Positions 2,601-3,157 of a DNA stretch of 64,000 nucleotides are shown here, piece by piece. Each line of letters begins with the position of its first letter. The stretch's first letter is position 1. Under the pieces are notes generated by a model, which worked only from the letters and a program-made list of their open reading frames with translations, ran no database searches and was not told the DNA's origin. The translations under genes and the position numbers were made by a program. The stretch is from Candidatus Latescibacterota bacterium (GTDB lineage Bacteria; Latescibacterota; UBA2968), in contig CBDDPH010000002.1 of assembly GCA_965232265.1 (NCBI GenBank), positions 350,216 to 414,215 of the forward strand, written 5' to 3'.

Positions 2601-2673
2601 ACTGGATTTACACATCCTGTTTGCCTATATTGCCACCGTCTTTCAACACTTCAATTTTTCTCAGGAGGTCTAA

Positions 2674-3111
2674 ATGCTCGCAGTAGGTGATATCGCGCCT
2701 GATTTTCTGGTCAAAGACCACACAGGCAGTGACGTAAAACTCAGTGATTATCGCGGCAAGAACGTCGTACTCTGGTTTTATCCCAGAGCAAGCACGGGTG
2801 GCTGAACGGCTGAAGGTGTGGGATTCCAGGAGCGAATCCGTGACTATGAAGTCAAAAATGTGCAAATTCTGGGCGTCAGCACAGACGGCGTTGCCGCCAA
2901 TGCCAAATTTGCCAAAACACAAAAATTTGAATATCCCTTATTGTGCGACACAGAACGCGAAATCTGTCTGTCTTACGGGGCTTGTCAATCGGCATCGGAC
3001 CGCGCTGCCAAACGCATGACATACCTCATTGCTCCCGACGGAACAATCGCACAAATCCATACCAATGTGGATGCGCGAAAACATCCCGAGGCATTGTTGC
3101 CCACAATATAG
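2674..3111 (+). CDS. bcp: peroxiredoxin BCP/PrxQ, selenocysteine-containing (TGA at 2803-2805 = Sec44)
   Basis: AGGAGG RBS, ATG 2674, [50 protein letters not shown], then continues in frame into ORF 2818..3111 ([23 protein letters not shown]). TGA occupies the Cys of the PxxxTxxC motif. Confidence 0.9.
2821..2839 (+). promoter_or_regulatory. putative bacterial SECIS hairpin
   Basis: GGATTC-caggagc-GAATCC stem-loop starting 15 nt after the in-frame UGA, with a G-containing apical loop. Confidence 0.6.
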
Positions 3112-3127
3112 GGATGCACTGACACCG

Positions 3128-3157
3128 CGGCAGACGGATTGTATCGTCTGCCGTTTT
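3128..3157 (+). terminator. intrinsic terminator after bcp
   Basis: cggcagacg..cgtctgccg followed by tttt. Confidence 0.6.

Follow-up and report, generated by a model that had tools for sequence, protein, structure and literature searches.

The window analysed here is a stretch of 64,000 nucleotides (nt) from a Candidatus Latescibacterota bacterium (assembly GCA_965232265.1, contig CBDDPH010000002.1, positions 350,216 to 414,215). Positions 2674-3111 of the window very probably contain a genuine gene of the Latescibacterota lineage for a peroxiredoxin with selenocysteine (Sec, U) at the peroxidatic position, which has been mis-annotated as a fragment. Decoding of the UGA codon in the source strain itself is a separate question. 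It appears fairly likely, to the same degree as the assumption on which it rests, namely that the genes selC and selD lie in an unassembled stretch. The features of the locus are as follows.

2674..3111, + strand: full coding sequence (CDS) of the candidate Sec-peroxiredoxin, 145 codons and TAG, translated with TGA as U
2660..2665, + strand: Shine-Dalgarno-like AGGAGG, 8 nt 5' of the start codon, read from the sequence
2803..2805, + strand: in-frame TGA, predicted to encode Sec at the peroxidatic site of PxxxTxxU; the codon is TGA in 25/25 orthologues
2821..2839, + strand: hairpin resembling a selenocysteine insertion sequence (SECIS), GGAUUC, loop CAGGAGC, GAAUCC; stem intact in all 25 orthologues
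2818..3111, + strand: 97-amino-acid (aa) open reading frame (ORF) with a GTG start, as called separately by gene callers and given in the ORF list; the C-terminal two thirds of the same frame
3127..3154, + strand: terminator-like hairpin, 11-bp stem then TTTT, from a consensus scan and a consensus match only

The frame opens with ATG at 2674 and runs through 43 sense codons, the TGA at 2803-2805 and 101 sense codons to the TAG at 3109-3111; it contains no further disabling changes. An earlier note, made from the letters of the window, had described a ribosome-binding site, this ATG, this TGA and a frame continuing into the 97-aa ORF. All of them are found in the sequence at these coordinates, and the ORF list confirms that the 97-aa ORF at 2818-3111 is the tail of the frame that starts at 2674.

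The product with U is supported as a peroxiredoxin of the AhpC/TSA family and, probably, of the BCP/PrxQ type, which is also how the earlier note had classified it. The Pfam profile PF00578 (AhpC/TSA) matches the predicted 145-aa protein with 118.2 bits (cut-off 26, E = 2.7e-34), and this match, residues 4-127 against profile positions 1-123 of 124, crosses the TGA unbroken. The top NCBIfam matches are BCP thiol peroxidase (95.8 bits, equivalog cut-off 140) and PrxQ (86.5 bits, cut-off 260), both below their cut-offs. The PrxU model NF040737 gives 51.2 bits over part of its 233 positions, well below its cut-off of 270. The top matches in the PDB are BCP/PrxQ-type chains, with E-values down to 5e-20 and collinear alignments over residues 8-142. 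The TGA falls on the C of PxxxTxxC: the active site reads P37-R-A-S-T41-G-G-U44, and U44 closes the motif PxxxTxxU. The active-site residues of the product are P37, T41, U44 and R114, the last of which lies in 'AKRMTYLI' and is aligned to the conserved arginine of 'IERSTFLI' in the PDB chains. The active-site stretch FYP[RK]A[SGN]TGG-TGA is invariant in 24 orthologues and is followed by the residues TAE.

Orthologues were collected by a six-frame search of 40 related genomes. Each of the 24 genomes from the same family, of which 20 belong to the same genus and 4 to other genera, yielded one orthologue at 63-94% identity. All 25 family orthologues, including that of the source genome, contain exactly one TGA, and it is at the same codon throughout this set, which spans 63-99% identity (it was read directly in 24 orthologues, and the 25th, from G022, was confirmed in a separate later check). 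The 16 genomes of the sister family contain only a paralogue with about 35% identity and no internal stop. The closest named loci carry the record title 'MAG: Candidatus Latescibacterota bacterium', where MAG stands for metagenome-assembled genome.

In a wider scan of species-representative genomes, 73 loci encode relatives. The catalytic codon is TGA in 59 of them, assigned by record title to Acidobacteriota, Myxococcota, Planctomycetota, Binatia, Geobacteraceae and others. In the remaining 14 it is TGC or TGT (11 Corallococcus, one Citreicoccus, one Blastocatellia and one other Acidobacteriota), so that the UGA aligns with cysteine in homologues, as the earlier note had expected. In a quick and poorly resolved tree of 78 distinct proteins, whose careful search was unfinished and from which G022 and rows shorter than 120 residues were left out, the cysteine forms occur at three places within the Sec forms, and the Latescibacterota form one clade with 99% support. 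Judging by these codons and this tree, the wider family is mostly Sec-containing, with few reversions to cysteine nested inside.

These comparisons bear on three other explanations of the TGA. Gene callers stop at this codon, and the 97-aa and 91-aa tails are separate protein entries in public collections. Both facts would fit a pseudogene or a sequencing error, with the TGA as a nonsense mutation or as TGC/TGT miscalled in a single assembly. However, the same TGA occurs in 25/25 independent family assemblies and in 59/73 loci from other phyla, and there are no other disabling changes. Moreover, on both sides of the TGA the orthologue comparison reveals an open frame with conserved amino acids and synonymous change, indicating purifying selection. 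The probability of this explanation is negligible: the TGA can be neither a read error nor a nonsense mutation private to the source genome. Production of two proteins, a 43-residue peptide and a 97-residue protein from the GTG at 2818, could be proposed, since that GTG opens the 97-aa ORF. However, the 97-aa piece lacks the entire active-site loop, with P37, T41 and the peroxidatic residue, and the Pfam match (residues 4-127) runs through the TGA. The GTG start is not conserved either, as codon 49 is valine in only 62.5% of 24 orthologues and isoleucine, alanine, methionine, glutamine or asparagine in the others. Two separate products are thus hardly credible.

Finally, TGA could be read as tryptophan or glycine throughout the genome, as in NCBI codes 4 and 25. 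Indeed, W is printed at this position in the database entries of four relatives (P0001, P0002, P0006 and P0013), most likely because of the genetic code chosen by the gene caller. However, TGA is the commonest stop of the 2707 open frames of at least 300 codons (TGA 1180, TAA 937, TAG 590), the release factor 2 (RF2) gene prfB is present (522 bits), the only tRNA-Trp called by ARAGORN has the anticodon CCA, and no tRNA with the anticodon UCA was found by ARAGORN in the source genome. The homologues, moreover, carry cysteine and not tryptophan at the catalytic position. TGA is not reassigned in the source genome and is an ordinary stop codon there; genome-wide recoding is extremely improbable as an account of the gene.

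The candidate SECIS element consists of a 6-bp stem (GGATTC at 2821-2826 and GAATCC at 2834-2839) that closes the 7-nt loop CAGGAGC. As the earlier note had stated, the distance from the TGA to the start of the stem is 15 nt. The loop begins 21 nt after the UGA, which is within the range of 16-37 nt that we take to be used by bSECISearch for this distance. All six pairs are intact in 25/25 Latescibacterota orthologues, with one A-to-G change giving a G-U pair, and the loop contains GG in all of them. Mean synonymous entropy, computed over 24 sequences with G022 left out, was as follows.

Codons 50-56 (hairpin): 0.13 bit
Codons 45-56: 0.27 bit
Codons 1-43: 0.64 bit
Codons 57-145: 0.70 bit

The codons around the UGA (GGC, ACG and GCT) are also invariant.

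Among 54 distinct 45-nt stretches 3' of the TGA, 27 contain a perfect 6-bp stem at columns 19-24/32-37, 16 contain a 7-8-bp stem at 13-20/24-31, four have a stem at 19-24/30-35, and seven have none of these. The 27 distinct sequences of the first group come from several phyla and pair in 162/162 cells. Two of the six stem pairs are changed on both sides (GGAUUC/GAAUCC versus GGGCUC/GAGCCC, 8 rows), although these 8 compensatory rows belong to one Myxococcota clade and perhaps reflect a single event. The covariation score on the 27 rows is reached by 0/500 shuffles, and slid registers pair in 10-62% of cells; however, the rows were picked for forming the stem, and this count is therefore biased. 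A hairpin in one of the three registers is present in 43/50 distinct TGA forms and in 0/12 distinct cysteine forms. However, the registers were defined after inspection of the TGA forms, 10 of the 12 cysteine forms come from 12 Corallococcus/Citreicoccus loci and represent one clade, and the cysteine forms fold about equally stably elsewhere (mean -13.1 versus -14.9 kcal/mol). In addition, the fold energy of positions 2803-2870 is unremarkable (z = -0.39; 55 of 200 shuffles equal or better), and there is no covariation within the Latescibacterota clade, where the stem is invariant save for the one G-U pair. All these reservations weaken the evidence for the hairpin. Its significance lies in its conservation among relatives and not in fold energy alone. 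Taken together, the comparisons support well a conserved RNA structure that is positioned like a bacterial SECIS and is under constraint at the RNA level. By analogy with E. coli, SelB carrying Sec-tRNA(Sec) would bind the hairpin at 2821-2839, within the CDS 3' of the UGA, and would deliver Sec in place of termination by RF2.

The earlier note had implied that selA, selB, selC and selD should be present elsewhere in the genome. This is so for half of the set: selA (580 bits) and selB (394 bits) score above their cut-offs and are adjacent genes with intact frames, and the predicted SelB has its winged-helix domains. In contrast, profile, ARAGORN and blast searches of the assembly found neither selC nor selD. 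In 4.73 Mb, the best match to the selD model is a ThiL-like ORF (68.6 bits, cut-off 125). The AIRS_C domain matched four times in three open frames, namely twice in a PurL-like frame of 1331 aa and once each in a PurM-like frame of 353 aa and the ThiL-like frame. The only tblastn match to the SelD proteins of three relatives has 26-30% identity. ARAGORN found no tRNA-Sec, the top matches to the tRNA-Sec model (48 bits) are tRNA-Ser genes, and blastn-short with the selC of a relative gave only matches of 13-18 nt. The relatives have both genes: selD, itself with an in-frame TGA, in 40/40 of them, and tRNA-Sec (68-75 bits) in 24/24 of those searched, about 100 nt downstream of selD wherever both were located. 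ARAGORN calls tRNA-SeC(tca) at 6/6 of the selC loci of relatives tested.

A tRNA-like gene with an encoded CCA was observed outside the window on the + strand (G000:C2:3694902-3695006; locus L063:1501-1605). Its acceptor stem has 8 bp, its variable arm is very long, and its anticodon loop of 8 nt reads CUUCCAAA. In Rfam it matches tRNA-Sec alone, with 34.6 bits, below the gathering score of 47; there is one extra C inserted in the tRNA-Sec loop CUUCAAA, and ARAGORN does not call the gene. It is 100% identical in 5 other genomes of the genus, was found in 12/20, and has compensatory changes in the D stem and the variable arm. Some genomes contain 5' partial copies 2-6 kb away, and the relatives that carry the gene also have a canonical selC. 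Candidate explanations are an allo-tRNA-like molecule, quadruplet decoding or a relic of a mobile element.

Should selC and selD really be absent, the source strain would stop translating the gene at codon 44. The strain would then have truly lost the selC-selD block with a neighbourhood of more than 100 kb, UGA would terminate translation, and the gene, selA and selB would be recent relics that have not yet decayed. This concerns decoding in the source strain only and is compatible with a genuine Sec-peroxiredoxin gene of the lineage. Apart from the missing genes, of which no remnants were detected in the 4.73 Mb, such a loss would account for the size of the assembly (4.7 Mb versus 5.5-6.3 Mb in close relatives). 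It would also fit the structure of the region. The 200-kb stretch of the related genome G002 that was compared with the source genome is syntenic on both flanks at 91-96%:

G002 5,086,000-5,118,506 = C2 285,881-255,070
G002 5,281,687-5,285,226 = C2 1-3611

Here C2 is the 4.72-Mb contig of the assembly. The 163 kb of G002 between these flanks, which hold selC-selD, have no counterpart in the assembly save for one 606-nt match. Further, a selenoprotein gene that lies beside selD in G005, with the same kind of ORF in the neighbouring position of G017, has no orthologue in the source genome.

On the other hand, C2 starts inside a gene, exactly at the edge of this block. Bases 1-1899 cover just the 633 C-terminal codons of this gene, whereas the open frames of its orthologues, at 95-97% identity, run to 814-870 codons; about 180-240 N-terminal codons are thus missing, and the assembly is demonstrably incomplete there. 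The gene at the other end (C2:4714433-4716604) has its orthologue more than 1 Mb away from that of the first gene in four relatives. Circular closure of C2 was considered and rejected: the ends do not overlap, and the open frame across the end-start junction has no plausible start codon. The assembly is therefore open despite a marker completeness of 98%, and in this nominally 98% 'complete', single-contig MAG a contig break falls where selC and selD are missing. In G002, G017, G005 and G004, selD lies 105-127 kb upstream of the orthologue of the first gene; the distance is 158 kb in G006 and 306-514 kb in G001, G015 and G019. When the 4-kb and 20-kb selD loci were compared with the assembly by blastn and tblastn, only an msrP-like paralogue with about 60% identity was shared, and no deletion junction could be defined.

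Private codons of selA and selB were compared among 16 close genomes, with four more distant genomes and one partial genome left out. The source genome has 20 synonymous and 7 non-synonymous private substitutions in selA, and 13 and 12 in selB; the other 15 genomes pooled have 146 to 102 and 191 to 104 (Fisher p = 0.15 and 0.28). For both genes together the ratio is 33 to 19, versus 337 to 206 in the 15 relatives, and these counts do not point to relaxed constraint on either gene in the source branch. The Sec-peroxiredoxin gene itself has 3 synonymous and 5 non-synonymous private substitutions (25 to 21 in the relatives), which are too few to demonstrate constraint on this branch. Two TGA-interrupted redoxin genes of the source genome keep both their frames and their hairpins intact. 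Contigs from three sequencing runs of the same study cover the selC-selD locus at low depth with about 94-95% identity to G002, the same level as that between the source genome and G002 in the syntenic blocks; these contigs may come from the source organism or from a co-resident relative. In the run that best matches the window no contig covers selC or selD, although a hole in the contigs proves nothing.

Thus an assembly gap is likelier than loss of selC-selD, as the assembly stops at the edge of the very block that carries this pair in the nearest relatives. It is reasonably probable that the pair is located in unassembled sequence upstream of the contig start, and the strain having lost it seems rather unlikely. 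Actual insertion of Sec is inferred from genomic sequence. More generally, failure to find Sec machinery in a MAG is not to be read as a refutation of a selenoprotein call.

Several further features of the assembly were recorded. Short dispersed repeats of about 40-130 nt with 80-97% identity occur in dozens of copies across C2. They also flank the selC-selD locus of relatives (L060 and L061, at about 50-190 and 1090-1245) and attracted most contigs in the run comparison; they look like miniature inverted-repeat transposable elements (MITE) or repetitive extragenic palindromic (REP)-type elements. Contig C1 (11,007 bases, GC content 48%) has a 2.1-kb direct repeat (99.5% identical) and 657-codon open frames and contains nothing relevant to Sec. 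It resembles a eukaryotic retroelement-type repeat more than bacterial chromosomal sequence and is probably host contamination of the bin. Labels of sequencing runs tie the group to sponge samples, by small shares only.

The earlier note had also expected other mis-annotated selenoproteins in the genome, and at least one further TGA-interrupted redoxin gene indeed exists. This gene and a selenoprotein locus of the relatives are located as follows.

~C2:2898230-2898800, + strand: second TGA-interrupted redoxin gene, TGA at G000:C2:2898459, outside the window; frame intact
L060:2439-3270 (- strand) and L061: WAxxUGC selenoprotein locus, beside selD in G005 and G017

The predicted product of the second redoxin gene contains the motif YRGYW-U-PHC, and its N-terminus resembles a signal peptide; 17 nt separate the TGA of this gene from the start of the hairpin GCAGUUG-GGA-CAACUGC. 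A paralogue in relatives, about 33% identical, has TGA at the same motif. By its motif the gene fits the class 'Prx-like thiol:disulfide oxidoreductase, UxxC' listed in a 2026 review (PMC13188914). The locus of the relatives encodes a candidate thioredoxin-fold selenoprotein with 'WASW-U-GCRAQ' (WAxxUGC type) and lies between selD and an msrP-like gene in G005 and apparently in G017; it is the G005 gene noted above as lacking an orthologue in the source genome. With this gene and the in-frame TGA in selD of 40/40 relatives, the genus has at least four selenoprotein families. A genome scan for TGA-interrupted ORFs combined codon-usage scores and redox motifs with a local test of the frame; its candidates numbered 596 at first and 219 afterwards. 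It dropped the known gene and was rejected as too unspecific. The Thioredoxin_8 profile (PF13905) had no TGA-bearing matches in the source genome and 8 relatives, a result that is uninformative on the size of the selenoproteome.

The Sec-peroxiredoxin gene stands alone. The upstream neighbour is a metallophosphoesterase gene on the opposite strand, and an RNase II gene lies downstream. The terminator-like hairpin at 3127-3154 begins 16 nt 3' of the full-length stop codon.

As to catalysis, the selenolate of U44 would reduce a hydroperoxide and become a selenenic acid, as in the family at large. The known positions of the resolving cysteine of PrxQ are +5 (helix alpha2) and helix alpha3. At +5 the source protein has V49, and each of the 25 Latescibacterota orthologues has V, I, A, M, Q or N; the absence of this cysteine, remarked on in the source protein by the earlier note, extends to the whole clade. 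The stretch aligned to helix alpha3 ('akfakt') has no cysteine either, and the protein thus differs from atypical 2-Cys PrxQ at both positions. As both are empty in the clade, the oxidised Sec would most likely be reduced directly by thioredoxin or another thiol. Alternatively, it might be resolved by C91 or C98, which are present in 25/25 Latescibacterota sequences (C104 is present in 24/25). C98 is aligned with cysteine also in the Cys-type PrxQ structures, and C91 with their serine.

In the wider family, the +5 cysteine is kept in 14/14 distinct cysteine forms versus 30/66 distinct Sec forms, although the relatives are not independent and the cysteine sample is small and mostly one clade. 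The 36 of 66 Sec forms without it have V, N, I, A, R, M, Q or S and occur at about six places on the poorly resolved tree. This suggests a link between Sec and loss of the +5 cysteine, which is a lead and not a result. One tentative possibility is that selenium has made the resolving cysteine dispensable in this branch of PrxQ; the Latescibacterota enzymes would then be '1-Sec' peroxiredoxins, with an external thiol partner acting directly as the reductant of their selenenic acid. Provided that the link persists once relatedness is corrected for, the family would be a natural experiment in which Sec alters the catalytic cycle of a peroxiredoxin and not only its rate.

In public protein collections the gene appears as fragments of 83-97 residues; examples are P0004, 97 aa long with 36 member sequences, and P0021, which has 91 aa and the name 'redoxin domain-containing protein [Candidatus Latescibacteria bacterium]'. 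The full-length cysteine relative P0003 is named 'peroxiredoxin' there. Probably the same mis-annotation affects all related genomes searched. With the annotation corrected, an uncultured group regains an antioxidant enzyme among its genes, and Candidatus Latescibacterota join the users of Sec-peroxiredoxins.

The proposal of a hidden selenoprotein, a BCP/PrxQ peroxiredoxin with a SECIS-like hairpin 3' of its Sec codon, is supported by the analysis, but the gene was hidden only from annotation, as its family has long been catalogued. TxxU Sec-peroxiredoxins have been listed since 2001-2006, and T/SxxU Prx is among the oldest bacterial selenoprotein families. In 2006, 12 genes of the T/SxxU Prx family (PF00578), defined by the T/SxxU/C site, were counted (PMC1794560), and the review mentioned above lists 'Peroxiredoxin (Prx) PF00578 TxxU' and the motif PxxxTxxU (PMC13188914). 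The catalogued proteins share with the candidate the Pfam family, the motif PxxxTxxU, Sec at the peroxidatic position, cysteine homologues in other species and a SECIS within the CDS just 3' of the UGA. A point of difference is the loss of the +5 cysteine in the Latescibacterota clade. The main text of PMC13188914 contains no occurrence of 'Latescibacter', 'sponge' or 'BCP', although its supplements and those of PMC1794560 may list BCP-type members. Among the papers listed on selenocysteine and PrxQ or bacterioferritin comigratory protein, none deals, by title and abstract, with a bacterial Sec-PrxQ.

PrxU of Eubacterium acidaminophilum (NF040737) is an experimentally shown Sec-peroxiredoxin, cited in the same review (PMC13188914). 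The candidate resembles it in being a peroxiredoxin with Sec as the predicted peroxidatic residue. The two belong to different subfamilies, the source protein reaching 51 bits against the cut-off of 270; PrxU is, we assume, a longer, 2-Cys/Prx6-like protein. A further comparison is with the BCP/PrxQ structures 5enu_A, 5epf_A, 5iiz_A and 3gkk_A, of which 5iiz_A and 3gkk_A are titled 'Bacterioferritin comigratory protein'. They share with the source protein the length class of about 150-160 residues, the FYP...T..C loop and the arginine of the R-x-T-[FY] strand. They differ from it in having cysteine and not Sec, whereas the source protein has valine at +5 and no cysteine in the alpha3 stretch. 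Since Sec-peroxiredoxins are already known, the gene is a new member of the long-known TxxU family, new for its phylum, and its recognition is a routine correction of annotation.

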